Below are positions 6,905 through 64,000 of a DNA stretch of 64,000 nt, piece after piece (within the stretch, counting starts at the first letter, position 1; the number at the start of each line of letters is the position of its first letter). The stretch lies in the NCBI RefSeq assembly GCF_049337375.1, contig NZ_JBMPIV010000001.1; one strand, written 5' to 3'. The notes beneath the pieces are model-generated. The model saw only the letters and a list, made by a program, of their open reading frames with translations, searched no databases and was not told the DNA's origin. The DNA comes from Nannocystis pusilla (GTDB lineage: Bacteria > Myxococcota_A > Polyangia > Nannocystales > Nannocystaceae). A program made the translations under genes and the position numbers.

Positions 6905-6985
6905 CGAAGGGCATGTCCTCGCGGACATGCCCTGGCAACCATGGTCTGAAGGACATGTCCCTGCGGACATGCCCAAGGAGACAGC
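6905..6985. repeat. 14-bp-period palindromic tandem repeat (about 6 units) between the DUF2330 gene and the next gene
   Basis: ggcatgtcctcgcg / gacatgccctggca / accatggtctgaag / gacatgtccctgcg / gacatgcccaagga, read directly from the sequence. Confidence 0.85.
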
Positions 6986-6986
6986 C

Positions 6987-7808
6987 TCAGCCGATCGGGG
7001 CGTTGGCGATCCGGTGGACCAGCCAGAACAGGTTGGGGCCGTGGCGGTCGGGCAGCTCGCGCTTGACCGCGCGGAGGCTGTCGCACAGCTGCTCGAGGCC
7101 GCGGTCGAGGACGACGGCGCGGCGGGCTTCGAGGCGCTGGCCGACGCCGATCGGCTGCCAGCTGGTGCCCCACGGGATCGACCAGGTCAGCACGCGGTCG
7201 CCCGGGCGCAGGGCCTGCGACAGGTTGCTGTCGGTGAGGGTGACGGGCTCGTCGCGCAGCAGGTCCTTGCCGCGCACGCGCTGCTTGCCGGGGTTCACGT
7301 CGTCGACGGCGACCAGCAGGAGGCGCGCCTGCAGGCAGGCGTCGAGGGCGGCGCGCTGGCGGCCCTCGAGCGGCACGCCGGCGCTGGTGAACATGTCGAC
7401 CAGGCGGACGCCCTTGGGGTCGCGGTAGCCGTACAGGCAGAACGTCTGGGCGGCGCGGCGCAGGTCGGCGTTGTTCTTCTCGGCCGGGGTGGCGCCGCCG
7501 AAGAAGCCGTTCATCACCTGGGTGACGAACGGACCGAAGCGCCGGGTGGCGAAGCTGCCCAGCATCGACTCGACCCGCTCGAAGTCGGCGCGCTCGTAGC
7601 GGCCGAACTTGGGGGTGAGCGGTCGCTCGTTCGTCAGCGCCGCCACGGGGGCAGGGTTGCGCGCGCGGGCGGCCTCCTGGGCCTGCGCGATCTCCTGCTC
7701 GGCGGTGAGGAACGGGCCGGTGCCGCGACGCTTGCGGCGGGAGTCCGAGCGGGGCGTCGACGCGGCGGGCGGGGCTACGGTGCCGGGTTGTTCGGGTGTG
7801 TCGGTCAT
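6987..7808 (-). CDS. Hypothetical protein (no family recognised)
   Basis: Internal ATG at MTDTPEQ (7808). The ORF-track N-terminal extension is Arg-rich noise. The gene overlaps the upstream gene by 4 nt, which suggests an operon. Confidence 0.5.
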   Translation of the reverse strand: MTDTPEQPGTVAPPAASTPRSDSRRKRRGTGPFLTAEQEIAQAQEAARARNPAPVAALTNERPLTPKFGRYERADFERVESMLGSFATRRFGPFVTQVMNGFFGGATPAEKNNADLRRAAQTFCLYGYRDPKGVRLVDMFTSAGVPLEGRQRAALDACLQARLLLVAVDDVNPGKQRVRGKDLLRDEPVTLTDSNLSQALRPGDRVLTWSIPWGTSWQPIGVGQRLEARRAVVLDRGLEQLCDSLRAVKRELPDRHGPNLFWLVHRIANAPIG

Positions 7809-15970: not shown

Positions 15971-16059
15971 GCGGACCGCGAGCGCCGCGGGTCGTATTGA
16001 CTTTGCGACATGTGTGAAGGGCCAGGTCCGAAGGGACAGGGTCGAAGGGGCAGGTAGAA

Positions 16060-17673: not shown

Positions 17674-19468
17674 GTGGCGGCTCGCGTCGATGGCCGGCCT
17701 GGCTGGCCTGGCGCTGGCGGGCGCGCTGCTGGCCGCCGGGCGCGGGGCGCTGATCGAGGCGGCGGCGGTGGAGCCGTTCCGCGTCGAGGTCGCAAGCCCG
17801 CACGCGCCGGCGGCGGACGGACGCTGGTCGGGGCGCGTGGTCCCGCCGGAGCTGGCCGGGCGGGTCGTGGTGCGGGTCGACGGCGCGGTCCGCAGCGGTC
17901 CTGAAGGACATGTGCAAAAGGACATGTCCTTGGAGGCGTCGCGTGATGCGGGCGACCGCACGGCGTCCGCCGCGGGCGGCGGGGAGGTCGGCGCGGCCGG
18001 ACATGACCTCGAGAACATGGTGGAAGGGACATTTTCGGTCGCGCTGGGCGACGCGCCGGGGCTGCGGCTGATCGAGGTCGAGCTGCCGCGGCAGGGCGGC
18101 GCGGAGGTGGCGACCGACGCGGCGCTGGTCGGGCCGTTCCGCGCCCGCTACGACGACTCGCCGGGCTGCGGCGCGGGGGTGCGGGTGGCGGCGAGGGCGA
18201 TCGATCGGCTGGTGCTGCCGCCGCTGCGCGACAAGCTGCTGGCGGCGGCGCCGTCGATCGGGCTGCTCGGGCCGGGGACGACGCTCGAGGAGGCGAGCGT
18301 GACGCTGCGGGGCGACGCGCTGTGGTTCCGCGTGGCGCTGGCGGGCGAGCACCGGATCGCGGTGTCCGGCGCGCTGGAGGTGCGGGTGGCCGGGCCGCGC
18401 CAGCTCGGCGTGCGCCTGGCCTCGCTCGGGCCGGTCGAGTTCACGGGGACGCTGCGCACGCGAGCGACGCTCGGGGCGGCCGGGCTGGGGGCGATCGTGA
18501 CGGGGCCGCTGGCGCCGCTCGGGGCGCTGGCCGGCTACGCGCTGGCCGACGGCTACATCGACCGACGCGCGCGGCAGGAGGTCGAGACGCAGCTGACGGC
18601 GGCCCTGGCGGTGGCCAGCGCGATCCCGCTGATCCCCGAGCGCGCCGAGCTGATCGTCGGCGAGCCGCGCTCGCGGGCGACGCTGGCGTTCTGCGCGGTG
18701 GCCATCGAGTCGGGCGGGATCGCGGCGCACCTGTCCGTACGGCCAGATAAACCTGACCCGAAGACCAGTCAGGAGGCGAGCCGCGTGCGCACGCGGCTCG
18801 CGGCGATCCCGGGGCCGGCACGGCACGGGCTAGAGCTGCCGCCGCTGCGGCCGGTGGCGCCGACGGCCGACGCGGAGGTCGAGCTGAGCCTCGACACGGT
18901 CGCCGCGCTGCTCGACGCGTGGACCGCCAACGGGCTGCTCGGCGACCTGATGGGGCGGGCGCAGTGGGTCGAGCGGGTCGACGAGGCGCTCGGCGAGTGG
19001 ACGACGCTCGGCCTGGCGGAGATCGAGGTGCGGCTGCCGCCGTCGCTGTCCCCGGGGACAGGTGACGGCTGGGCCCTGACCGTCGCGGGGCTGCGCCTGG
19101 GGCTGACCGGCAGCGAGGGCGAGGACCCCGGCGAGGTGCTGGTGGCCGGACGCGGGTTCGTGCGTCCTCACTACGACGCGGGGCGCGGGCGGCTGGCGCT
19201 GGCGGGGACGATCGATCGCCTGCGCCTGTCGTGCGCCCGTGCAGGGGCGCTGTGGCCGTGCTTCGCCGCGCTGCTCGAGATGGGCGACGTCGAGGCGAGG
19301 CTCGATGCGCTGCTCGCCCCCGGCGCCGGGGGGCTGCCGGGGATCGAGGTGCGGGCGCTGCTGCGCGACGGCACGCGAGCGCTGCGCGACGGGGGGCTGG
19401 AGCTGGCCGATCTGGCGATCAGCTACCCGCAGCCGGGCGTGCTGCGCGTGGCGGCCGAGGTGCGCTGA
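17654..19468 (+). CDS. Hypothetical protein with an N-terminal TM segment; the reading frame passes through a 14-bp repeat element. The true start may be ATG 18017 inside the repeat.
   Basis: No recognisable Mce/MlaD domain. The frame is continuous across repeats at 17901-18040, but this could be a GC-rich frame artefact. Confidence 0.4.
   Translation: MALAEDKWRLASMAGLAGLALAGALLAAGRGALIEAAAVEPFRVEVASPHAPAADGRWSGRVVPPELAGRVVVRVDGAVRSGPEGHVQKDMSLEASRDAGDRTASAAGGGEVGAAGHDLENMVEGTFSVALGDAPGLRLIEVELPRQGGAEVATDAALVGPFRARYDDSPGCGAGVRVAARAIDRLVLPPLRDKLLAAAPSIGLLGPGTTLEEASVTLRGDALWFRVALAGEHRIAVSGALEVRVAGPRQLGVRLASLGPVEFTGTLRTRATLGAAGLGAIVTGPLAPLGALAGYALADGYIDRRARQEVETQLTAALAVASAIPLIPERAELIVGEPRSRATLAFCAVAIESGGIAAHLSVRPDKPDPKTSQEASRVRTRLAAIPGPARHGLELPPLRPVAPTADAEVELSLDTVAALLDAWTANGLLGDLMGRAQWVERVDEALGEWTTLGLAEIEVRLPPSLSPGTGDGWALTVAGLRLGLTGSEGEDPGEVLVAGRGFVRPHYDAGRGRLALAGTIDRLRLSCARAGALWPCFAALLEMGDVEARLDALLAPGAGGLPGIEVRALLRDGTRALRDGGLELADLAISYPQPGVLRVAAEVR
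17901..18040. repeat. Composite 14-bp-period repeat (two clusters separated by about 60 bp) embedded in an ORF
   Basis: ctgaag gacatgtgcaaaag gacatgtccttgga ... ggacatgacctcga gaacatggtggaag ggacattttcggtc. Confidence 0.75.
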
Positions 19469-42099: not shown

Positions 42100-42924
42100 A
42101 TGCTCCACTCGGAAGACCCGCACTACCACCGCGCCGCGGAACACCTGCGTGAACGCCTCGAGGGCGCCAAGATCGACTGGGTCGTGGTGTCCGGCTCCGG
42201 CTTCGTCGGCATGGCCGGCGACGGGCCCGACGGGCTCGGCATGACGGTGGAGGGCTCGATCCCGCTGCGCGGCCTCGGCCTGCCGGTGCCCACGGTCGCC
42301 GGTCACGGCACGGCGCTGGTGTTCGGCACCGTCGGCAAGCTGCGCGTGTGCGTGCAGACCGGCCGGATCCACCCGTACGAGGGCCACCCGATCAACGTCG
42401 TCACCGCGCCGCTGTGGGCCATGCTGGCCAACGGCGCCCGCGGGGTGTGCCTGACCTGCGCCGTCGGCGGGCTCGACCCGGCGCTGCGCACCGGCCAGGT
42501 GGTGCTGCTCAAGGACCAGATGAACCTGTTCGGCCCGACCCCGCTGGTCGGCGCCCGCTTCATCGACATGAGCCAGCTCTACAGCCCGCACCTGCGCGCG
42601 CGCCTGCAGGCGATCGACCCCGGGCTCGGCGCGAGCAGCCTGGCCGAGGTGGTCTACGCCCACGCCCGCGGCCCGCAGTACGAGACGCCGGCCGAGACGG
42701 CGGCCCTGCGCTCGCTCGGCGGCCAGGTGGTCGGCATGTCGACCACCTACGAGGCGATCCTCGCCGCCGCCCATGGCGCGGCGGTCTGCGGCGTCGGCGT
42801 GGTCACCAACGCGGCCAGCCAGGTCGGCCTGAACCACGAAGAGGTCCAGGAGCGCACGCGCGCGGCCAAGCCCCAGGTGGCCAGCCTGCTGCGCGGGCTG
42901 CTGGCGCAGCCGCCTGGCGCTTGA
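42100..42924 (+). CDS. Purine nucleoside phosphorylase (PNP/MTAP family)
   Basis: PNP-I family phosphate-binding and purine-binding motifs (VVSGSGFVG, GMSTTYEAILAA). Confidence 0.75.
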   Translation: MLHSEDPHYHRAAEHLRERLEGAKIDWVVVSGSGFVGMAGDGPDGLGMTVEGSIPLRGLGLPVPTVAGHGTALVFGTVGKLRVCVQTGRIHPYEGHPINVVTAPLWAMLANGARGVCLTCAVGGLDPALRTGQVVLLKDQMNLFGPTPLVGARFIDMSQLYSPHLRARLQAIDPGLGASSLAEVVYAHARGPQYETPAETAALRSLGGQVVGMSTTYEAILAAAHGAAVCGVGVVTNAASQVGLNHEEVQERTRAAKPQVASLLRGLLAQPPGA

Positions 42925-42980
42925 GGCATGTCCTGAAGGGCATGCCCGAAGGGGCATGCTCGTCGGGGCATGTCTGAACG
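42924..42980. repeat. Cleanest 14-bp tandem array: ggcatgtcctgaag / ggcatgcccgaagg / ggcatgctcgtcgg / ggcatgtctgaacg
   Basis: Four head-to-tail units starting exactly at the PNP stop codon. Confidence 0.9.
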
Positions 42981-43389
42981 TACAGGCTGCCGGAAGGGCG
43001 CCGTGACCGACGTATCGGCGTTACTGCTGCGCGCCGAAGCGTGGCGGCGCTTTCGCTTGCGCCGGCACCTGCACGCGTTTGCCCGCTGACTCGCTGCACC
43101 GGCGCGCTCCGCAGGAGGTCGAGGCGTGGAGCGCCCCGGGGTCGACGCGGCGCTGCGGCGCGCGGCCTACGAGGTCGGCATGGTTCTCGATCGATCCCGT
43201 GACCCCGTGAATTCGCTGGGTCGAGCGACGTGAGATCGGTGAGCGGTGGGCGCCGCCGGAGCGCGGGTCGGTCGCTGCTGGAGCCGCGCGAGGGTCGACG
43301 CCCGCATCGGCGCACGCGTGAGCGACGACGCAGGTCGGGCGGACGTCGGCGAGCCGCGCGTGCGCCCCGGCGTGGTATGACCGGGCGTC

Positions 43390-44879: not shown

Positions 44880-47831
<2,952 letters not shown>

Positions 47832-47832
47832 A

Positions 47833-47913
47833 GTTGTCCTGAAAGACAGGCCGGTTCGGACATGCCCGGACGGGCATGCTGTATACGACATGCCCGCAAG
47901 GACATGTCCTTGA
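47833..47913. repeat. 14-bp-period repeat (about 5 units) between the SNF2 helicase and the FG-GAP gene
   Basis: gacaggccggttcg / gacatgcccggacg / ggcatgctgtatac / gacatgcccgcaag / gacatgtccttgag. Confidence 0.85.
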
Positions 47914-47915
47914 GG

Positions 47916-49364: not shown

Positions 49365-49745
49365 GCATGTCCCTTCGGACAGAGTCTCTGCTACCCCGTG
49401 CCGAAGTCTCGCCGCTCCAGAAGACCGCCGCCCCCGAGCGGTGAGATGTCTAAAGGGACAGGTTCGCGGGCCGAGGAACATGTGCGGAAGGGTCGCGGCG
49501 CGGGGGTCGAGCGATGAGGTGTCTAAAGGGACAGGTTCGCGGGCTGAGGCATATGTGCGGAGGGTCGAGTCGCGGGCGTTCGCGCGGTGAGATGTCTACA
49601 TGGACAGGTTCTCGGGCCGACGCACATGTACGGAAGGGTCGCGTCGCAGGCGGTCGAGCGATGAGATGTTTTTAAAAGGGACGGGTTATCGGGCCGAGGC
49701 AGATGCCGCGGGAGAGCGAACGGACAGGTCGTAAAGGACAGGTCT
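49365..49745. repeat. Higher-order tandem array: about 4.5 units of about 73 bp, each built from 14-bp subunits of the dispersed family
   Basis: The units start near 49436, 49509, 49582 and 49656 (cgagcgRTGAGRTGTCTAAAGGGACAGGTTCGCGGGCYGAGG.ACATGTGCGGAAGGGTCGCG...). There is a degenerate copy at 49365-49435. Confidence 0.85.
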
Positions 49746-49774: not shown

Positions 49775-50974
49775 TCAGGAGCGGCACAGCGCGGATACCC
49801 GCGCGGCCAGGGCGGAGGCGGGCCAGCGGGCGAGGAATGCGGCGGCTTCGCGGCGGGCGCGGTCGTGTTCGCCGAGACGGCAGCGGGCCTCGATCGCGGC
49901 GGCGGCGGTCTCCTGGGCGAACACGCCGGCGGGGAAGCGCCGCTGGTGGCGGGCGACCAGCTCGAGGGTGGTGCGGTCGTCGGCGGCGAGCAACGCGGCG
50001 CGGATCGATTCGACGAGGTCGAGCTCCGCGGCCAGCGAGGGCTCCTCGCCGCGAGAGCGGCGCGCGGGCGCGGGGGGAGCGGGCGGGGCGGAGGCGGGCG
50101 GGGCCGGGGTGACGGCGGCCGCGAGCGCGACCGGCTGCGATCCCGGCTGCGACTGCACGGGCGCGGGCTCGTGGGCCGGGGCGACGACCGACGGCGGCGG
50201 CTCGGGCGGTGAAGGGCGGCCGAACGCCAGCACGGCGAAGAGCCCGGCGCCGGCGACCGAGAGGCCGACGACCGGGCTGCCGCCGGCGATCGCGGCCGGG
50301 GTTGCGATATGACTCATCGACCATGTCTTTGCGAGCATGTCCGAGACGACAGCCGGATCGCGCGCGGCGGCCAGGCGCCACGGCGGCGGCCCGGGCGGAC
50401 CGACCGCGACCAGCGCGGCGAGCACGTGGGCGCCCCGGCGCGGCCGGACCCGGCGATCGCGGGCGTCGAGGCGGCGGACCATGCGGTCGAGCTCGCGCCG
50501 GGCGGCGCGCAGGCGCGAGTAGACGGTGTTGAGGTTGACGCCGAGCTCAGCGGCGATCTCGGGGGCCTGCCACTGCTCGAGCTCGGTCATGACGAAGACG
50601 ACGGCCTGATCGCGGTCGAGGCCGTCGAGGAAGCCCTGGAGGATCGCGGCCGCCTCGGCCTGCTCGACGGGGGCCGCGACGGCGGGGGCGAGGACCTCGG
50701 CCTCGCTCAGCGCGCAGCGGCGCGGCTCCTCGCGCGCGGCGCTGCGCCGGTAACGGCTGGCGACGCGCCGCGCGATCTCGAACAACCAGGTGCGCAGCGC
50801 GGCCCGACCGGCGAACTCGGGCAGGCGGCGGTAGACGACCAGGAAGGTGTCCTGGACGGCGTCGTCGACCCGCGCCGGCTCGACGCCGAGGTGCCGGATG
50901 GTGCGCCAGACGAAGCCGTAGTTCGCGCGGTAGACGGCGGCGAAGTCGGGGAGGGCTTCCTGGGGGAGCGGCAC
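49775..50974 (-). CDS. ECF (sigma-70 group IV) sigma factor in one frame with a C-terminal TM plus anti-sigma-like domain. This is either a fusion or two genes with an unrecognised boundary.
   Basis: Sigma region 2 (FAAVYRANYGFVWRTIRHLG...DAVQDTFLVVYRRL) and region 4 (LGVNLNTVYSRLRAARREL). These are followed by a TM helix (AAIAGGSPVVGLSVAGAGLFAVLAFG) and an Ala-rich periplasmic part. A 14-bp repeat sits at the junction (50306-50350). Confidence 0.65.
   Translation of the reverse strand: MPLPQEALPDFAAVYRANYGFVWRTIRHLGVEPARVDDAVQDTFLVVYRRLPEFAGRAALRTWLFEIARRVASRYRRSAAREEPRRCALSEAEVLAPAVAAPVEQAEAAAILQGFLDGLDRDQAVVFVMTELEQWQAPEIAAELGVNLNTVYSRLRAARRELDRMVRRLDARDRRVRPRRGAHVLAALVAVGPPGPPPWRLAAARDPAVVSDMLAKTWSMSHIATPAAIAGGSPVVGLSVAGAGLFAVLAFGRPSPPEPPPSVVAPAHEPAPVQSQPGSQPVALAAAVTPAPPASAPPAPPAPARRSRGEEPSLAAELDLVESIRAALLAADDRTTLELVARHQRRFPAGVFAQETAAAAIEARCRLGEHDRARREAAAFLARWPASALAARVSALCRS
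50306..50350. repeat. Three 14-bp units (atatgactcatcgacc atgtctttgcgagc atgtccgagacgac) in frame at the sigma / anti-sigma junction
   Basis: Read directly from the sequence. Confidence 0.7.
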
Positions 50975-50995
50975 GATCGGGTCTGTCTCCGCGGG

Positions 50996-52570
50996 TCAGC
51001 GATTCCGTGGCCCGAATTGCAGGTCGAGGCCGAAAGTGGTGCGCAGGCCCGCGCGGCCGCCGCGGTACACCTCTTCAGCGCCGACGGTGAAGATCGGGCG
51101 GTTGACGGCCACGAGTCCCTCGACGGCCAGCCACAGGCCGAGCGGGCCGGCGACCCGCCAGCGCAGCGCGGGGCCGAGGAAGAAGCTGGCCCACGGGGCC
51201 CATCGCGGGTTCGGGACGGTGACGTCGCGGGCGACGCCGTGGAGCGCACCGACCTCGAGGCCGGCGCACAGGAGGACGGCGAGCGCCGGGCGCGGGTGCA
51301 GGGTCGGACAGAGCCGCACGACCCCGCCGAGGCGGTCGAAGCGGCCGCCGGGGCGCTCGCTGTCGCCTGGGAGGATCCGGCCGGGCGCGCCCACGAGGCC
51401 GGCCTCGAGGCGCAGGCGCGGCAAGGTGACGCCGCCGAACACGCCGACGAGGCCCCCGACGCCGGGGAGGACGCCGACGTCGAGGCCGCCCTCGAGGCGG
51501 AGGTGGCCGAGCACGCGCGGCGGTGCGGCCGGCCGGGGCGTTCGCGCGGCGGAGAACTCGGCTGTCTCTTCGGACATGTCCTCGGGGGCGAGCGGGCGCG
51601 ACGGCCCGGCGGGCGGTCGCGGGGGCGCGGGCGAGGTGAGCCGGCCTGCGGGTGAGGAGGTCGGGTCTGGCCGGAAGGACAGGTCGGGAGCGGCGGGGAT
51701 CGAGGGGGCGCGGGCCGGGTCGGACGCGAGGGGGTCGGGCGGCAGGAGCGGCGGGACCGGCCTCGTGGGCGACTCGGGTGGAGTGGGGGATGTCCGCGAG
51801 GACAGGTCGGTGGGCGAGGCCGGATCGGACGCGGAGGTCGTGGATGGCCGCGGGGCCAGGTCGGTGGGCGGGGCCGTGCCGGGCGGAGAGGAGGTCGTGG
51901 ATGTCCGCGGGGACAGGTCGGTGGACGGGTTGCCGGGCGGGGAGGTCGTGGATGTCCGCGGGGACAGGTCAAAGGGGCCCGGCGACGGGATCTTGGCTGT
52001 CCCGGAGGACAGGTCGGGCGGCAGGGCCGGGGGCGCGGGCGGGGCGACGGCGACCGCGGGCAGACCGCGGGCGACGCCCAGGGGGTCGAGGTGGATGGCG
52101 ATCAGGAGGGCGGCGGCGCGCGCGAGGATCGGGCAGCTCTCGGCGCGGACGGTGCGGCGGTAGGCGCTGCCCCGCCCACGCAGCACGAGCCGCAGCTCCC
52201 ACGTCGCGGCGGCGCGCGTGACGAGCCCGCGGGCAACGGCGCGACCTGCCGCGTCGTCGCCGGTCGGCTGACGCAGCAGGCCGGCGACCATGTGCAGGAC
52301 GGCGTCGCCGTCGGGGCACTCGCGCGGAGCCTGCCAGGTCAGGTCGACCGGCGGCGCGGCGACCGACGGCGCGGCGGACGAGAGGCGAGCGAACACCAGC
52401 GCGGCGAGGGCGAGCAAGCGAGAGTCCTGGCCCCGGTGATCGTGTCCGGGCAGGCGGGGGGCGTCAACTGTCGGCTGGCGTGCGACCGCGTGGACCGGCG
52501 TGCGGGCGGGGCAGGGCGACAGGTCGCGCGGGCGCGGCCGGGGCGAGACCGGCCGGACCCTGCGATGCAC
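50996..52570 (-). CDS. Hypothetical secreted protein: N-terminal domain, Pro/Ser/Thr-rich 17-18-aa tandem repeats, and a C-terminal region with beta-barrel-like alternating hydrophobicity
   Basis: Repeats of DLSPRTSTTSPPG(N/T)PST and a C-terminal ...GLRTTFGLDLQF... The start is uncertain. It lies 22 nt upstream of the sigma gene. Confidence 0.45.
   Translation of the reverse strand: MHRRVRPVSPRPRPRDLSPCPARTPVHAVARQPTVDAPRLPGHDHRGQDSRLLALAALVFARLSSAAPSVAAPPVDLTWQAPRECPDGDAVLHMVAGLLRQPTGDDAAGRAVARGLVTRAAATWELRLVLRGRGSAYRRTVRAESCPILARAAALLIAIHLDPLGVARGLPAVAVAPPAPPALPPDLSSGTAKIPSPGPFDLSPRTSTTSPPGNPSTDLSPRTSTTSSPPGTAPPTDLAPRPSTTSASDPASPTDLSSRTSPTPPESPTRPVPPLLPPDPLASDPARAPSIPAAPDLSFRPDPTSSPAGRLTSPAPPRPPAGPSRPLAPEDMSEETAEFSAARTPRPAAPPRVLGHLRLEGGLDVGVLPGVGGLVGVFGGVTLPRLRLEAGLVGAPGRILPGDSERPGGRFDRLGGVVRLCPTLHPRPALAVLLCAGLEVGALHGVARDVTVPNPRWAPWASFFLGPALRWRVAGPLGLWLAVEGLVAVNRPIFTVGAEEVYRGGRAGLRTTFGLDLQFGPRNR
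51570..52015. repeat. Coding DNA tandem repeats (about 51-54-bp units) composed of GGACAGGTC / GGATGTCC subunits related to the 14-bp family
   Basis: For example, gaggtcgtggatgtccgcggggacaggtcggtggacgggttgccgggcggg repeated 4-5 times. Confidence 0.75.
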
Positions 52571-52615: not shown

Positions 52616-52735
52616 GGTCTTCAGGACAGCCCGATGGCGAGGGCCGGCGGGCGCTGCGGCGCACTGTCCTATCGGACATGTCCTTTGATAAAGGTCATGC
52701 AGGACATGTCGAATAGAGCATGTCCGAACAGACCG
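52616..52735. repeat. 14-bp-period repeat cluster (about 7 units) between the Pro/Ser/Thr repeat protein gene and the ABC SBP gene
   Basis: gcactgtcctatcg gacatgtcctttga taaaggtcatgcag gacatgtcgaatag agcatgtccgaaca. Confidence 0.85.
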
Positions 52736-55222: not shown

Positions 55223-56588
55223 CATGGAGATGCGCCTTTCCCCATTGGTCGTGGCCAGCCTGGCCGTGTTCGCGGTGTTCCTCGACACGACGGTGCTGTT
55301 CGTGGCGTTCCCGTCGATCGCGGCGACGTTCCCGGCGGTGCCCACGGCCGAGCTGTCGTGGGTGCTGAACGCGTACACGATCGTGTTCGCGGCCGCGCTG
55401 GTGCCGTTCGGGCGGCTCGCCGATCGCTGGGGCCATCGGGCGACGTTCCTGGCCGGGTCGATCGCCTTCACTCTGGCGTCGCTGCTGTGCGCGGCGGCGC
55501 CGACTCCGGGGCTGCTGGTGGCCGCGCGCGTGCTGCAGGCGGCCGGCGGCGCGGCGCTGGTTCCTTCGTCGCTCGCGCTGGTGATGCGGGCGACGCCGCG
55601 CGAGAGGCTGCCGGTGGCGCTGGCGGTGTGGGGCGCGACGGGAGCGGTGGCGGGGGCGGTCGGGCCGACGCTCGGCGCGGCGCTGATCGAGGCGTGCGGC
55701 TGGCGCTGGGTGTTCGCCATCAACCTTCCGGTCGGGCTGGTGACGGTGCTGCTCGGGCGAAGGCGCCTGACCGAGTCGCGCGACCCGGACAGCGTGCTGC
55801 CGGCGCCGCTCGGGGTGGTGCTGCTGGTGCTCGCGGCGGTGCTGATCACTCTGGCGCTGGTGCTCGGGGAGGCGTGGGGCTGGACGTCGCAGCGGACCGC
55901 GGCGACGCTGGTGGCCGGGCTGGCGACCCTGGCGGCGTTCGTGATCCATCAGGCGCGCACGCGGGCGCCGACGATCGATCTGTCGCTGTTCGCGGGGAGC
56001 AACTTCCGCTGGGCCAACGCGGCGACGCTGACGTTCGGCGCGGCGTTCACGGCGATGTTCCTGGCCAGCGTCCTGTTCCTCACCGCCGTGTGGGGCTGGT
56101 CGATCCTCGCGGCGGGCTTCGGCGTCGCGCCCGGGCCGCTGCTGGTGGCGGTGCTGTCGCCGCGTTTCGGGCGGCTGGCGACGCGGATCGGCCAGCGGCC
56201 GCTCTTGATCGCCGGAGGGCTGTCGTTCGCGCTCGGGGGGCTGTGGCGCCTGGGGATGCTGTCGGCCGAGGTCGACTACGCGGTCGACTACCTACCGTCG
56301 ATGCTGCTGACCGGGACAGGGGTGGCGCTGTGCCTGCCGCAGCTGTCGAGCGTGGTCGGCCAGGCGTTGCCGGCGAACCGCCTCGGGGTCGGCGGGGCGG
56401 TCCACCAGGCGCTGCGCCAGTTCGCGGGGACGCTCGGGGTGGCGCTGGCGATCGGGCTGACTGCCGGGGCGAGCGGGCCGGCCGACGCGCTGGCGCGGTT
56501 CGACCGGGTGTGGTGGGTGATGATCGCCGGCGGGGTGGCGACCGCGCTGTGCTCGCTGCCCCTTCGGACAGGTCCGGCCCGGGCGTGA
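55212..56588 (+). CDS. MFS transporter, DHA2 (EmrB/QacA-like, 14-TM) drug:H+ antiporter family
   Basis: Start at ATG 55212 or 55224. It has 14 predicted TM helices and MFS motif A (GRLADRWGHR). Confidence 0.8.
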   Translation: MIERMEMRLSPLVVASLAVFAVFLDTTVLFVAFPSIAATFPAVPTAELSWVLNAYTIVFAAALVPFGRLADRWGHRATFLAGSIAFTLASLLCAAAPTPGLLVAARVLQAAGGAALVPSSLALVMRATPRERLPVALAVWGATGAVAGAVGPTLGAALIEACGWRWVFAINLPVGLVTVLLGRRRLTESRDPDSVLPAPLGVVLLVLAAVLITLALVLGEAWGWTSQRTAATLVAGLATLAAFVIHQARTRAPTIDLSLFAGSNFRWANAATLTFGAAFTAMFLASVLFLTAVWGWSILAAGFGVAPGPLLVAVLSPRFGRLATRIGQRPLLIAGGLSFALGGLWRLGMLSAEVDYAVDYLPSMLLTGTGVALCLPQLSSVVGQALPANRLGVGGAVHQALRQFAGTLGVALAIGLTAGASGPADALARFDRVWWVMIAGGVATALCSLPLRTGPARA

Positions 56589-58080: not shown

Positions 58081-58160
58081 GGCTGTCCCGAGGGACATGC
58101 GGAAATGGACAGGGCGGAGAGGTCAGGTCCGAACGGGCATGTCCGAAGGGTCAGGTGGGG
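58081..58160. repeat. 14-bp-period repeat between the ABC ATPase and permease genes, overlapping the ATPase 3' end
   Basis: gacatgcggaaatg / gacagggcggagag / gtcaggtccgaacg / ggcatgtccgaagg. Confidence 0.8.
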
Positions 58161-59051: not shown

Positions 59052-59837
59052 TCAGGCCTTGCGGGGGCGCGAGCGGCGGGCGCGGGCGGGCTTGGCCGGG
59101 GGCGCAGGGGGCTCGGGCTCGGGTTCGTCTGCCTCTTCGGGCATGTCCTCGAGGTCCGGTGCTTCCGAACCTGTCGCTTCAGACATGTCCTCGGAGACCT
59201 CCTCGGCCTCGGCCTCGGCTTCGGCCTCGGGCGGGTCGGACGGGGCCGCCTCGAGGCCGCTGTTGCGGAGGGTGCGGGGCGGCAGCAGCTCGGGCTCGCT
59301 GACGACCTTCTTGGCCAGGAAGATGGCGGCGTCGATCTGGGAGAAGCTGCGGGCGCGGTAGAACTGGAGCGCGCGCTTGTTGTTGGCGGCGACCTCGAGG
59401 ACGAGGTGCGTGCAGCCGCGCACGCGGGCGAGGTGCTCGAGCTGCTCGATGACGAAGCTGCCGATCCCGCGGCCCTGGAAGTCGGGGTGGATGGCGATCT
59501 CCTCGACGAACAGCGGGCGCATGTCCCGGCTCTCGAAGTAGCGCTCGTTGATCCAATTGTCGGAGCCGATGACCTCGTAGGCGCACTCCGCGTAGCCGAC
59601 GATCACCGGGGCGTCGCCCTCGTGGATCTCGAACAGCAGCTGCTCGATGCCCTCCTCCTCGTAGATCTCGAGGAAGCGGGTCTTGGTGCGGGGGCGCTGG
59701 TACTCGACGGTCTCGCGGTTGACCGAGCGGAACACGCGCTTGAGGAACTCCCACACCTTGTTGAGGTCGCGGCGGTGGATCCGGCGGACACGGATGGTGG
59801 GCTCCGTGACGGCGGGCGCGGGCTTGCGGGAGGCCAC
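59052..59837 (-). CDS. GNAT family N-acetyltransferase with a C-terminal acidic/Pro-rich tail
   Basis: GNAT core (HPDFQGRGIGSFVIEQLEHLARVRGCTHLVLEV). The tail (EAEAEAEAEEVSEDMSEATGSEAPDLEDMPEE...) is partly encoded by 14-bp repeat units at 59134-59197. Confidence 0.7.
   Translation of the reverse strand: MASRKPAPAVTEPTIRVRRIHRRDLNKVWEFLKRVFRSVNRETVEYQRPRTKTRFLEIYEEEGIEQLLFEIHEGDAPVIVGYAECAYEVIGSDNWINERYFESRDMRPLFVEEIAIHPDFQGRGIGSFVIEQLEHLARVRGCTHLVLEVAANNKRALQFYRARSFSQIDAAIFLAKKVVSEPELLPPRTLRNSGLEAAPSDPPEAEAEAEAEEVSEDMSEATGSEAPDLEDMPEEADEPEPEPPAPPAKPARARRSRPRKA
59134..59197. repeat. 14-bp-family units inside the 3' coding tail of the GNAT gene
   Basis: ctcttcgggcatgtcctcgaggtccggtgcttccgaacctgtcgcttcagacatgtcctcggag. 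Confidence 0.7.
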
Positions 59838-62003: not shown

Positions 62004-62155
62004 CGCTGGACATGTCATCAAGAACATGCTCGATAGAGCATGCTCTCATGAGCATGTTCATCGAGACATGGCCGGGAGGGCAGGTGTGTCCGGGGCCCGG
62101 CGCGCCTCACGAGCATGTTCTTCGAGTCATGGCCGTGAGGGCATGTGCGTCCGGG
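62004..62155. repeat. Long 14-bp-period repeat cluster (about 10 units) including an internal duplication of about 48 bp, overlapping the 3' end of the TPR/kinase-associated gene
   Basis: gacatgtcatcaa gaacatgctcgata gagcatgctctcat gagcatgttcatcg agacatggccggga ... gagcatgttcttcg agtcatggccgtga gggcatgtgcgtcc. Confidence 0.85.
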
Positions 62156-64000
62156 GTCCGGCGCGGGTCAGCAGGCGCTCGCTGGCGGCCAGCTGGCGGG
62201 CGAAGCTGGCGCCGGCGCTGCGGTAGAACGCGAGCGCGGCGCCGAGGTGCGGGCGGGCGGCGGCGACCGACGGCGGCGTGGCGCTCAGCAACGCCTCGGC
62301 GAGGGTGCGGTGGGCGCGAGCGAGGCGCGGGGCCCAGTGCGGGTCGTCGGCGGCGAGGACGGTGAGCTCGGCGACGGCGGCGGCCAGCGGGACGCGGGCC
62401 TCGAGCGGCCGGCCGCGGACGAGCAAGTTCTGGCCGAGGACGAGGCGCAGCTCGGCGATCTCCTCGCTCGACCAGGTGGTGTCCGGCATGCGCGCGAGGG
62501 TGGCCTGGAGGTGCTCGATGGCGGTGTCGTCGTCGACCGAGCCGGCGAGGCCGCGATAGCCGGCGAGCAGGGTCGCCTCGGGCCCGAACAGGCGCGTGCC
62601 GGACAGCTCCGACAGCTCGGCGGCGGCGCGGAAGACCGAGGCGGCGTCGTCGTCGTCGCCGATCTCGGTGGCGGCGCGGCCGAGGTGGAACAGGCACCGC
62701 GTGCGACGCACGAGGTCGTCGGGCAAGAACCGCTCGAGGGCGACGCAGCCGGCCTGGAGGATCGACCAGGCCTCACCCGGCTCGGCGAGCTGGGCGGCGG
62801 TGATCCGCGCCTCGATGGTGGCGGGGTGAACGACGCCGAGCTCGGCGTCGAAGATCTCGAGGGCGCGCGCGAGGAGGTCGTCGCGCGCGGCGCCCGGCTC
62901 GGTGACGGAGGCGAGGTTGAGGAGGGTGTAGCCGACGTCGCGGTGGCCGGCTGACAGGGCGCCCTGGCGCACGCTCAGGGCCTCGGTGAAGTAGCGCCGC
63001 GCCTCGGCCGAGTTGCGCTGGGCGAGGTTGGCGACGCCGAGGTTGTGCAGGACGAGGCCGCGCAGGGCCTCGGGAGCGGCGCCGCGAGAGGCGAGGGCGA
63101 GGGCGAGGGGCTCGTCGGCGAGGGCGCGCGCGACCATCTCGGGCCGGCGACTGGCGGCGACGATCCGCGAGGCCACGGCCTCGGCCGCGATCGCGTCGCC
63201 GCGCGACTCGATGCCGCTGCGCATGGCCCGGGTCAACCACTCGAGCTCCTGACCGGTCTCCTCGGAGGTGTTGAGCGAGAGCCGCCCGCGCAGCAGGGCG
63301 ACCTCGGCCCGCAGCGGGGCGTAGCCGATCTGCTCGGCGGCGGCCTCGATGTCGACGGCCTGATCGACGGCGTCGTGGATCCGCCCGAGCTTGGCCAGCG
63401 CCTCGACCCGCGCCATGTGATTGCGCAGGTCGGCGACGCGCTCGCCGAGCTCGGGGTCGTCGGGCGCCGGGGGTTCGGCCTTGAGGAAGGCGAGCTCGTG
63501 GCAGGCGGAGGGCGGCACGAGATCGCTGGCGGCGCCGAGCGCCCGCGGGGCCATGTCCATGTCGGCGATCGAGAGGGCCTTGACGGTCTCGTCGAAGGCG
63601 TCGCGCCGGCGATCGAGGCAGCGGCGCTGGCGATCGAGCAGGGCCTCGGTGTAGCGGCCCTGGTGCTCGGCGAGGCAGGTGTCGCGGTGGTTCTCGGCCC
63701 ACGAGGCGGCGAAGCGATCGAGCTTGTCGGCGACCTTGGGCCACAGCACGGCGGCGTAGTTGGGCGCCGCGTCGCGCAGAGCCGTGGCGACGGCGTTGCG
63801 CTGGGCCGGGCCCCAGACGCGGGCGATGTCGGCGTCGGCGTCGGCGCACGGGGACTCGGCGGCGGCCTCGGGCACGAAGGCGAGGCCGGCGGCGCCGGCG
63901 GTGAGGGCGAGCGCCAGAGCGGCGCCGACGAACCGCCAGGTCCGCCCGCGCGACGGGACGAGCGCGCCGAGCAGCGCCTCCATCGACGGGTAGCGGTCGC
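62127..64000 (-). CDS. Partial CDS (5' end beyond the window): TPR-repeat protein with an N-proximal TM segment, typical of the C-terminal region of myxobacterial Ser/Thr-kinase or anti-sigma-associated TPR proteins
   Basis: The frame stays open to the window edge. There is a TM helix (WRFVGAALALALTAGAAGLAF) followed by TPR-like repeats. Confidence 0.55.
   Translation of the reverse strand, partial: DRYPSMEALLGALVPSRGRTWRFVGAALALALTAGAAGLAFVPEAAAESPCADADADIARVWGPAQRNAVATALRDAAPNYAAVLWPKVADKLDRFAASWAENHRDTCLAEHQGRYTEALLDRQRRCLDRRRDAFDETVKALSIADMDMAPRALGAASDLVPPSACHELAFLKAEPPAPDDPELGERVADLRNHMARVEALAKLGRIHDAVDQAVDIEAAAEQIGYAPLRAEVALLRGRLSLNTSEETGQELEWLTRAMRSGIESRGDAIAAEAVASRIVAASRRPEMVARALADEPLALALASRGAAPEALRGLVLHNLGVANLAQRNSAEARRYFTEALSVRQGALSAGHRDVGYTLLNLASVTEPGAARDDLLARALEIFDAELGVVHPATIEARITAAQLAEPGEAWSILQAGCVALERFLPDDLVRRTRCLFHLGRAATEIGDDDDAASVFRAAAELSELSGTRLFGPEATLLAGYRGLAGSVDDDTAIEHLQATLARMPDTTWSSEEIAELRLVLGQNLLVRGRPLEARVPLAAAVAELTVLAADDPHWAPRLARAHRTLAEALLSATPPSVAAARPHLGAALAFYRSAGASFARQLAASERLLTRAGPRTHMPSRP

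Follow-up and report, generated by a model that had tools for sequence, protein, structure and literature searches.

A palindromic DNA element probably exonised in the disordered linker of a predicted outer-membrane barrel protein of Nannocystis pusilla

Here we describe a repeat-bearing gene and its surroundings in a 64,000-nucleotide window of Nannocystis pusilla (NCBI RefSeq assembly GCF_049337375.1, contig NZ_JBMPIV010000001.1), the window being the whole stretch of DNA that was analysed, with a G+C content of about 72%. The proteins of the window match best to those of Nannocystis pusilla, N. sp. RBIL2, N. punicea and relatives. An open reading frame (ORF) at 50996-52570 on the minus strand encodes an uncharacterised envelope protein with a long proline-rich linker, and that linker contains tandem copies of a short inverted repeat, TGTCC-N4-GGACA, which recurs between genes elsewhere in the window. 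The gene for an extracytoplasmic function (ECF) sigma factor lies directly downstream. The genes and protein segments at the locus are as follows.

50996-52570, minus strand: ORF of 524 aa if the first GTG is taken as the start; encodes an envelope protein that is uncharacterised and conserved in Nannocystaceae and Myxococcota.
52379-52429, minus strand: hydrophobic N-terminal helix LLALAALVFARLSSAAP, residues 48-64, from the AlphaFold2 helix and the ortholog starts; putative Sec signal peptide.
52070-52348, minus strand: N-terminal globular alpha/beta domain, residues 75-167, with a W-x-A-P-x-x-C-P motif; predicted fold like the TolB N-domain, LptE, PqiC and TraT.
51521-52069, minus strand: disordered linker (the tether), residues 168-350; Pro 28%, Ser 15%, Ala 13%, Thr 11%.
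51014-51511, minus strand: C-terminal small beta-barrel like those of OmpA, OmpX and OmpW, residues 354-519, ending in LDLQFGPRNR; from AlphaFold2 and Foldseek.
49775-50974, minus strand: ECF sigma factor gene, a 399-aa ORF with sigma-2 and sigma-4 domains in residues 11-166 (Sigma70_r2, r4_2, TIGR02937).

The ORF likely starts at the TTG at 52417, in agreement with the annotated ortholog N-termini MLALAALVF. The encoded protein has no Pfam match at E<=1, which includes OmpA_membrane and OMP_b-brl for the barrel, and no NCBIfam match either, so its architecture was taken from an AlphaFold2 model built on a 13-sequence alignment. The model contains the hydrophobic helix, a confident alpha/beta domain, an unstructured segment with predicted local distance difference test (pLDDT) values below 50, and a confident barrel with pLDDT of about 85-95. 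Foldseek matched the barrel in the PDB to the transmembrane domain of OmpA, NspA, Ail, OmpX, the N-terminal region of OprF, and OmpW, with E-values from 5e-8 to 5e-4, a probability of 1.0 and target TM-scores of 0.60-0.75; the predicted barrel is about 170 aa long, and the matched barrels are 8-stranded. For the N-terminal domain, the best structural matches were TolB-N and LptE, not STN. The G+C content at third codon positions in the linker is 0.89, highest in the ORF frame, which supports translation in that frame.

Barrels of the OmpA, OmpX and OmpW type have both termini facing the periplasm, which suggests that the tether and the N-terminal domain of this protein are also periplasmic. 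An earlier note on this DNA had proposed a low-complexity extracellular linker and a C-terminal region with beta-barrel-like periodicity. The linker is indeed disordered in the model, and the barrel is borne out by the pLDDT values and the Foldseek matches. An extracellular position is unlikely, both from the orientation of OmpA-like barrel ends and from the resemblance of the N-terminal domain to periplasmic domains of the TolB-N/LptE type; judged from the predicted structure, the tether is probably periplasmic rather than extracellular.

The sigma gene begins 21 bp past the stop codon of the barrel gene on the same strand. Its sigma domains are the only ones Pfam finds in the 399-aa ORF, which further includes a hydrophobic segment and extends C-terminally by about 180 aa. 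In a tblastn survey of Nannocystaceae, Polyangiaceae, Labilithrix, Enhygromyxa and other Myxococcota (loci L001-L062), the family gene was followed directly by a sigma domain in nearly all of 60 loci, and an FG-GAP protein comes next in orthologous loci. This synteny argues for a functional link between the sigma factor and the tethered barrel protein, and the position directly upstream of an ECF sigma gene, already described from the single sequence, is thus conserved across Myxococcota. The further suggestion that the two genes might form a surface-signalling unit remains an analogy, as no TonB-dependent transducer was detected at the locus with Pfam and NCBIfam, and Pfam found no FecR family in the tested neighbours. 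No ECF group could be assigned to the sigma factor from PMC7826278. The gene for an N-terminal domain, linker and barrel, paired with a C-terminally extended ECF sigma factor, appears as a Myxococcota-wide module with several paralogous copies per Nannocystis genome. In L061 (4508-10041), the module has an Omp85-family gene as its immediate upstream neighbour, and an FG-GAP gene follows downstream.

Within the linker, Tandem Repeats Finder reported a repeat at 51788-51970 with a period of 54 bp, 3.4 copies and 83% matches. A repeat search placed the unit starts at 51783, 51837 and 51894, with spacings of 54, 57 and 51 bp, and degenerate repeat copies at 51644-51687 and 51974-52017. The minus-strand units encode ...DLSPRTSTTSPPG... 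(T-D-L-S-P-R-T-S-T-T-S-P-P-G). The tandem protein repeats of 17-18 aa from DNA repeats of about 51-54 bp that had first drawn attention to the gene are therefore real, with units that range over 51-57 bp (17-19 aa). The tether holds seven copies of the TGTCC-N4-GGACA core, five intact and two degenerate, and every copy in the gene is in one frame and one orientation. The array and the core copies are listed below.

51783-51972, minus strand: tandem array of 51-57-bp (17-19-aa) units, about 3.4 copies, one element core per unit.
51998-52015, minus strand: core copy GACCTGTCCTCCGGGACA (PPDLSSGTA).
51953-51970, minus strand: core copy GACCTGTCCCCGCGGACA (PFDLSPRTS).
51902-51919, minus strand: core copy GACCTGTCCCCGCGGACA (STDLSPRTS).
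51845-51862, minus strand: mutated core GACCTGGCCCCGCGGCCA (TDLAPRPS), with arms TGGCC/GGCCA, both altered yet complementary.
51791-51808, minus strand: core copy GACCTGTCCTCGCGGACA (TDLSSRTS).
51668-51685, minus strand: dispersed degenerate core GACCTGTCCTTCCGGCCA (APDLSFRPD).
51563-51580, minus strand: junction copy GACATGTCCGAAGAGACA (PEDMSEETAEF), with the rare codons GAA and ACA.

The 5' flank of the copy at 51953-51970, GCCCCTTTGA, is identical in an intergenic copy of L003. The change of both arms at 51845-51862 is a single anecdote of compensation. The junction copy keeps its position among Nannocystis orthologs, just ahead of the barrel, and has decayed in L005 (GAC ATG GCC GAA GAG GCA) and L003 (GAC CTG TTC). 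An internal start at the ATG of the junction copy is ruled out, as L003 has CTG there. Long alternative-frame ORFs also run over the repeat, at 50707-51972 on the minus strand and 51036-52163 on the plus strand (for example MTCPRGHPRPP). These are other-frame shadows of the same DNA; their T-C-P and G-H-P peptides are the element core translated in other frames, and could mislead annotation.

The core links this coding repeat to the intergenic DNA of the window. Relative to a dinucleotide-shuffle expectation, GGACAKGTCC is found 14 times in the window against 0.17 expected, and GACAKGTC 35 times against 3.8, with six of these on the plus strand inside the ORF. The pattern TGTCCNNNNGGACA is present 18 times (0.07 expected), including four copies within the interval 51570-52015 that the earlier note had singled out. 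An 18-nt pattern, GACMTGTCCNNNNRGACA, is present eight times (0.00 expected), five times in the ORF and three times outside it: at 6952 in an intergenic region, at 45262 in another coding sequence, and at 52665 in the spacer upstream of the ORF. Coding repeat and intergenic elements have in common the inverted repeat TGTCC-N4-GGACA, extended on the coding strand to GAC-MTG-TCC-N4-RG-ACA, with one core in each coding unit and three more dispersed over the linker. This inverted repeat corresponds to the junction of two neighbouring 14-bp units of the intergenic arrays, so the 14-bp phase spans about 1.5 units in each repeat. The coding repeat has no 14-bp autocorrelation (0.36-0.39 at lag 14 vs a mean of 0.37); in the intergenic arrays the autocorrelation is 0.52-0.66 at lags 14, 28, 42 and 56 vs a mean of 0.25.

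Alignment was less informative than exact patterns. Searched by BLASTN-short against 55 kb of intergenic Nannocystis sequence, the linker gave 24 hits of at least 28 bits, where codon-resampled controls gave a mean of 9 and a maximum of 23; the top score of the linker was unexceptional against these controls, and similarity outside the core was barely above them. Because this search discriminated poorly, we relied on the exact-pattern and codon tests. The earlier note had attributed to the coding subunits the same 14-bp phase and GGACAKGTCC-like core as the intergenic elements, and had supposed the repeat to be built from expanded DNA of that family. The shared core stands far above expectation, and the shared phase does not extend beyond about 1.5 units per repeat. 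Expansion of 14-mers does not describe the repeat, given that about 18 nt per unit match, 14-bp periodicity is absent, and the BLAST similarity outside the core is marginal. That the relationship goes beyond the chance similarity of GC-rich DNA is supported by the rare codons fixed at the motif and by codon resampling, both discussed below.

In one frame the core reads D-[L/M]-S-x-x-T, and codon choice can separate a conserved nucleotide motif from a conserved peptide. The background, drawn from Nannocystis ORFs with 45.9 thousand codons in all, is 2.1% ACA for Thr, 11.7% TCC for Ser, 26% CGG and 1.7% AGG for Arg, 21% GGG for Gly, 1.9% CCA for Pro, and 5.7% GAA for Glu. In the window, L001, L002 and L003, all D-[L/M]-S-x-x-T motifs are spelled GAC MTG TCC NNN NRG ACA: Ser is always TCC, and Thr is ACA in 23/23 copies. 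With L007 and L061 included, Arg at motif position 5 is CGG or AGG in 17/17 cases and never CGC, and Gly at this position is always GGG. Where the motif Thr is replaced by Pro, the codon is CCA. Position 4 is occupied by P, S, F, E or A and position 5 by R, G, K, Q, W or E, with NNG-NRG retained throughout. The five ACA codons of the window linker are exactly the five motif Thr, and the 15 other Thr are encoded by ACC, ACG or ACT. Synonymous-codon resampling of the same peptide predicts 0.002-0.01 composite motifs against 4-8 observed, and 0/5000 resamples reached the observed count in any Nannocystis ortholog.

Among Nannocystis species, codon identity at conserved residues is 81%. Synonymous sites are thus unsaturated, with 19% of codons differing, and since this makes the retention of motif codons indecisive within the genus, we used distant orthologs (37-46% identity). 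In L061 (P0012, 37-42% identity), TCC-NNN-GGG-ACA-GC is present in 5/5 copies, even where D-L has become E-L or D-Q. In L062 (P0010), GAG-ACA is present in 2/2 copies.

Cores of the element are also translated in unrelated proteins of the window, at 59130-59190 and 58136-58150 on the minus strand and at 45262-45279, 56557-56575 and 19047-19060 on the plus strand. In a GNAT acetyltransferase (59052-59837, minus strand), element cores encode EDMSEATGS and EDMPEEADE of the C-terminal tail. The N-terminal region of an SNF2 helicase contains VSEGTGPE (GTG TCC GAA GGG ACA GGT CCC), with rare codons kept, and this segment is conserved in all Nannocystis loci. The last residues of a major facilitator superfamily (MFS) transporter and of an ATP-binding cassette (ABC) ATPase are encoded by the element core, as is SLSPGTG in an unassigned ORF.

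Fixed rare codons, varying residues, cores in unrelated proteins and orthologs that lack the motif together indicate that a nucleic-acid inverted repeat is what is conserved. At the level of sequence comparison, the conserved entity is shown to be this nucleotide repeat, and the peptide appears to be its by-product.

The unit of the intergenic family is a 10-bp palindrome, GGRCAKGYCC, with 4-nt spacers and hence a 14-bp phase. Intergenic arrays are located at 6905-6998, 16016-16055, 17900-17930, 42925-42985, 47835-47912, 52630-52730 and 62005-62165, and contain 3-6 units that follow each other head-to-tail every 14 bp and do not alternate in orientation. At 62045-62165, adjoining the 3' end of the gene at 62127-63998 on the minus strand, a lower-G+C 14-bp variant (GAGCATGTTCATCGA / GACATGGCC) makes up a direct repeat of 61 bp x 2 (88% matches). 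The array and tandem repeats that flank the sigma module, together with their counterparts at other loci, are as follows.

52630-52730: cluster of family elements (GGACAGCC, TGTCCTATCGGACATGTCC, GGACATGTCG, GCATGTCC) in the spacer upstream of the ORF.
49435-49745: 73-bp x 3.7 tandem repeat (81% matches) with GATGTCT-N4-GGACAGGTT in each unit, then two GGACAGGTC units; between the sigma gene and the FG-GAP gene.
L003 12828-12906; L010 12736-13048; L016 12767-12941; L020 12676-13250: arrays downstream of sigma genes.

RNA of the repeat at 49435-49745 folds no better than shuffles (z = 0.0). Similar 39-77-bp arrays with one hairpin per unit are found just 3' of orthologous and paralogous sigma genes. 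The sigma ORF itself contains a degenerate 14-bp-phased array at 50305-50360 on the minus strand, GGCTGTCGTC TC GGACATGCTC GCAA AGACATGGTC GATG AGTCATATCG, translated as AVVSDMLAKTWSMSHI between the sigma-4 domain and the hydrophobic segment; related copies are located at the same place of the sigma ORF in L003 and L006. The linker of the neighbouring gene thus also holds elements of the family.

We took a census of the family in 359 kb from 15 sampled Nannocystis loci. This sequence contains 196 hairpin-type sites (TGYCY-N4-RGRCA), with 35 in the target gene family, about 105 in sequence called intergenic, which makes up roughly 18% of the total, and about 56 in coding sequence, so that site density is about 1.6/kb in intergenic DNA vs 0.19/kb in non-target coding sequence. 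By type of gap, densities are 5.0-8.5/kb in convergent, 1.3-2.1/kb in tandem and 0.07-0.47/kb in divergent spacers. The elements therefore sit at gene 3' ends and shun promoter-only spacers, and reading the family as promoters or transcription-factor sites is ruled out by divergent spacers that are nearly element-free. Folding energies of the intergenic arrays range from -35 to -44 kcal/mol (z -2.7 to -6.7), with nested hairpins of up to about 24 bp; the array at 42920-42990 reaches -44.3 kcal/mol (z = -6.7), and those at 6905-6998, 47832-47915 and 62005-62165 were noted alongside it. Positions -1 and +1 flanking the intergenic copies covary (A..T 58 and C..G 41 vs A..G 25 and C..T 14), which is absent from the coding copies, and covariation at the central stem position is weak across the family. 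With this concentration at gene 3' ends and these long hairpins, the elements resemble repetitive extragenic palindromic (REP) sequences.

Counts of the 10-mer per 10 kb are 1.3-3.7 in the window and in the Nannocystis loci orthologous to it, and 0-1.9 in the paralogous ones of the genus; the other Myxococcota loci sampled essentially lack it. Two hairpin-type copies lie just 3' of the FG-GAP gene in L007. Rfam at gathering thresholds returned a single tRNA for the whole window and no family match, and text searches of the literature, made with GGACATGTCC and on repeats or palindromes in Nannocystis, brought up nothing beyond p53 response elements and papers on other subjects. The element family is apparently undescribed.

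A comparison of strains had been suggested as a check on repeat number. When the window is aligned at the DNA level with L004 (N. pusilla Na p29), L001 (RBIL2) and L005 (N. exedens DSM 71), whole 45-57-bp units are seen to be gained or lost, so that both unit number and linker length vary between strains in steps of whole units. Among orthologs, the linker measures 112-221 aa and contains 0-9 motifs, with P0008 and P0011 having none. Despite these large length differences, one open frame spans both domains in the window, L001, L002, L003, L006, L007, L061 and L062. The linker thus appears dispensable in sequence and not in frame, as the ORF is intact in most orthologs. Polyangiaceae homologs share the two-domain architecture without any elements, which rules out a recent gene fusion across an intergenic array.

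We consider it probable, on balance, that the core of a REP-like palindrome has been exonised here in the manner of the Rickettsia palindromic elements (RPEs), and has been amplified as a unit in the tolerant tether of an envelope protein that belongs to a conserved ECF sigma module. The tether protein would be the first gene product of this module and consist of a signal-like helix, a periplasmic domain like TolB-N or LptE, the tether, and an OmpA-like outer-membrane barrel. Its TGTCC-N4-GGACA core would belong to a high-copy palindromic family specific to Nannocystis and the Nannocystaceae, which one frame reads as D-[L/M]-S-x-x-T. A founder copy may have been inserted or absorbed into the mutation-tolerant linker and then amplified along with about 36 nt of flanking Pro/Ser/Thr codons, through slippage or unequal recombination. 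The single frame and orientation of all copies fit amplification of a founder, not repeated independent insertion. Since the linker probably needs only length, flexibility and an open frame, the copies could linger as weak 5-bp hairpins. The output would be a tether of tunable length joining the outer-membrane barrel to its periplasmic domain, itself presumably in communication with the adjacent ECF sigma protein through that protein's membrane-anchored C-terminal part.

Several observations weigh against this explanation. Only about 18 nt of each 51-57-bp unit, or about one third, match the family, occasionally joined by a few flank bases such as GCCCCTTTGA. The rest is ordinary Pro/Ser/Thr coding sequence. 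A single frame and orientation within the gene would also be expected under selection on D-L-S-x-x-T. Because copies from one genome are not independent of each other, the codon counts exaggerate how many separate events there were. The metagenome-assembled genome L007 carries the motif with Thr encoded by ACC in 5/7 and ACA in 2/7 copies, and has few intergenic elements in its 21 kb; this could reflect partial conservation at the peptide level, or a motif older than the genus-level expansion. Neither an insertion footprint nor a target duplication or transposase was identified, so the core may have been inserted or have emerged de novo. The gene boundaries behind the density figures come from a home-made codon-score caller. 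Finally, frameshifts are present within the linker of L004 (10595-10680), L005 (10634-10837) and P0005, a second N. pusilla assembly, and if real they would question obligatory read-through. The P0005 frame is also broken inside the conserved N-terminal domain, which makes assembly indels likely there. The linker frameshifts in general would be either long-read assembly indels in G+C-rich repeats, which is likely, or real disruptions.

The cores could instead be functional nucleic-acid elements within the coding sequence, either weak hairpins in the mRNA or binding sites for a protein that recognises hairpins or palindromes, and might affect how fast the mRNA is translated, how it decays, or how the downstream ECF sigma gene is expressed. 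TGTCC-N4-GGACA is kept across divergent lineages including L061 and L062, and the unit with both arms mutated remains complementary (TGGCC/GGCCA). The family is also present throughout the operon, in the upstream spacer, the linker, the linker of the sigma ORF and the downstream 73-bp array, with similar arrays downstream of paralogous sigma genes, and the density of cores in the linker, about 10/kb, exceeds the intergenic average. However, the coding stems stop at their 5-bp arms, with stem extension and flank complementarity below the shuffled null, and the mRNA of the coding repeat folds no better than shuffles (z = -0.3 and -1.9), for which reason we dropped the idea of a strong mRNA structure. 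The decay of the junction copy in L005 and L003, the absence of the motif from P0008 and P0011, and the weak central-stem covariation across the family also speak against a function of this kind, which we think unlikely.

It is quite improbable that D-[L/M]-S-x-x-T is itself the selected entity, for example as a glycosylation, protease or binding site, with the nucleotide likeness secondary and the rare codons spread through duplication. Selection on a peptide would be consistent with the constant frame and orientation of the motif in the gene and with its recurrence in several Nannocystaceae lineages, including L007 with its mostly ACC-encoded Thr. It would not account for positions 4 and 5 taking unrelated residues (E, F, W, K, G) while NNG-NRG is kept, or for rare codons fixed at Thr (23/23), Arg (17/17) and all Gly against backgrounds of 2-28%. 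In L061, TCC-NNN-GGG-ACA is unchanged where D-L gives way to E-L or D-Q, the nucleotides of the core are also read in other frames and within unrelated proteins, and some orthologs are motif-free.

Another reading takes the linker as noncoding, with the N-terminal domain and the barrel as two genes, an element array between them, and the long ORF as an artefact of high G+C. This we hold to be very improbable. The linker frameshifts in L004, L005 and P0005 would agree with it, but the frame errors of P0005 extend into the conserved N-terminal domain and suggest assembly indels; the ATG within the junction core would offer a start for the second gene, but it is CTG in L003. The gene also has a low codon score. 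Conversely, a single frame covers both domains in the window and in L001, L002, L003, L006, L007, L061 and L062, third-position G+C is highest in the ORF frame, and the element-free Polyangiaceae homologs share the two-domain architecture. Chance similarity at 72-77% G+C, which the modest BLAST excess (24 hits vs a control mean of 9 and maximum of 23, with an unexceptional top score) might have allowed, is refuted by pattern counts that far exceed both the dinucleotide-shuffle and the codon-resampling expectation.

With the exonised palindrome core as the favoured explanation of the tether, a broader proposal can be made tentatively, and we rate it as plausible at somewhat less than an even chance: that Nannocystis, and other Nannocystaceae less so, carry a very abundant and apparently undescribed REP-like family of 14-bp-phased GGRCAKGYCC palindromes that has recurrently been exonised into disordered linkers and C-terminal tails, and that drives changes of repeat number in envelope tethers like the present one. 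If this is true, about one site per 2 kb in the sampled loci implies thousands of sites per 12-Mb genome, and the proteome should carry a D-[L/M]-S-x-x-T, T-G-P and G-H-V peptide signature. A stronger version would have the cores kept in the ECF module for action on its mRNA or DNA.

The codon evidence shows that a peptide repeat of an envelope protein that looks conserved is in fact a nucleotide palindrome shared with a genome-wide family, a free-living counterpart to the RPEs of Rickettsia, and the case offers a mechanism for rapid change in the length of a periplasmic tether. For annotators, D-L-S-x-x-T 'motifs' and long alternative-frame ORFs in Nannocystis may be repeat-derived. The analysis also exposes two further subjects, an apparently undescribed REP-like family in the largest bacterial genomes and an uncharacterised Myxococcota module of tethered barrel and ECF sigma factor.

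In FecA-FecR-FecI signalling, the transducer is a 22-stranded TonB-dependent barrel with a plug and an STN domain. Like that system, the Nannocystis module combines an outer-membrane barrel that has a separate periplasmic N-terminal domain with conserved synteny to an ECF sigma factor, and the sigma partner or its extension crosses the inner membrane. Unlike it, the barrel is small and OmpA-like, there is no STN and no FecR, the gene order is different, and the sigma factor has its own membrane extension. With neither a TonB-dependent transducer nor a FecR feature, the likeness is analogical only. A structural parallel is found in OmpA, OmpX and OmpW proteins with proline-rich hinges, in which a flexible Pro-rich segment connects a small barrel with a soluble domain in the periplasm, and in the Pro-rich, periplasm-spanning region of TonB; in such segments length matters over sequence. 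The Nannocystis protein differs from OmpA in having the soluble domain N-terminal and the barrel C-terminal, in its lack of Pfam membership, and in a far longer linker with a variable repeat number.

As DNA, the elements resemble REP sequences, bacterial interspersed mosaic elements (BIMEs) and REPINs (PMC2817692, PMC3116915), being short imperfect palindromes of very high copy number that are mostly extragenic, occur in arrays and at gene 3' ends, and form hairpins. Unlike the 20-40-nt REPs in alternating orientation, they are 10-bp palindromes with a CATG or CAGG centre, set head-to-tail every 14 bp. The GTAG/GGAG head of REPs is not apparent in the listed contexts of the Nannocystis elements, for which no formal consensus was built.

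RPEs are about 100-150 bp long and have their own conserved peptide (PMC10969869). The elements described here differ from them in a shared core of about 14-24 nt that is tandem-amplified together with flanking Pro/Ser/Thr codons, and no terminal inverted repeats or target duplications were seen; in place of a discrete, bounded element of about 100-150 bp, the presence or absence between strains concerns whole 45-57-bp units. As with RPEs and with in-frame intragenic insertions of MITEs (miniature transposable elements with inverted repeats), enterobacterial repetitive intergenic consensus (ERIC) sequences and BOX elements (PMC10969869), a genus-restricted, high-copy palindrome is found both between genes and translated within ORFs. 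Element copies lie in the segment of the linker protein that AlphaFold2 predicts to be disordered, and in tails or linkers of the GNAT, SNF2, MFS and ABC proteins. As in the case of RPEs, peptide segments are added at tolerant places of unrelated proteins and the conserved domains are left undisturbed. The Nannocystis linker is a case of repeat DNA read as protein in a bacterium, and not a new kind of system.

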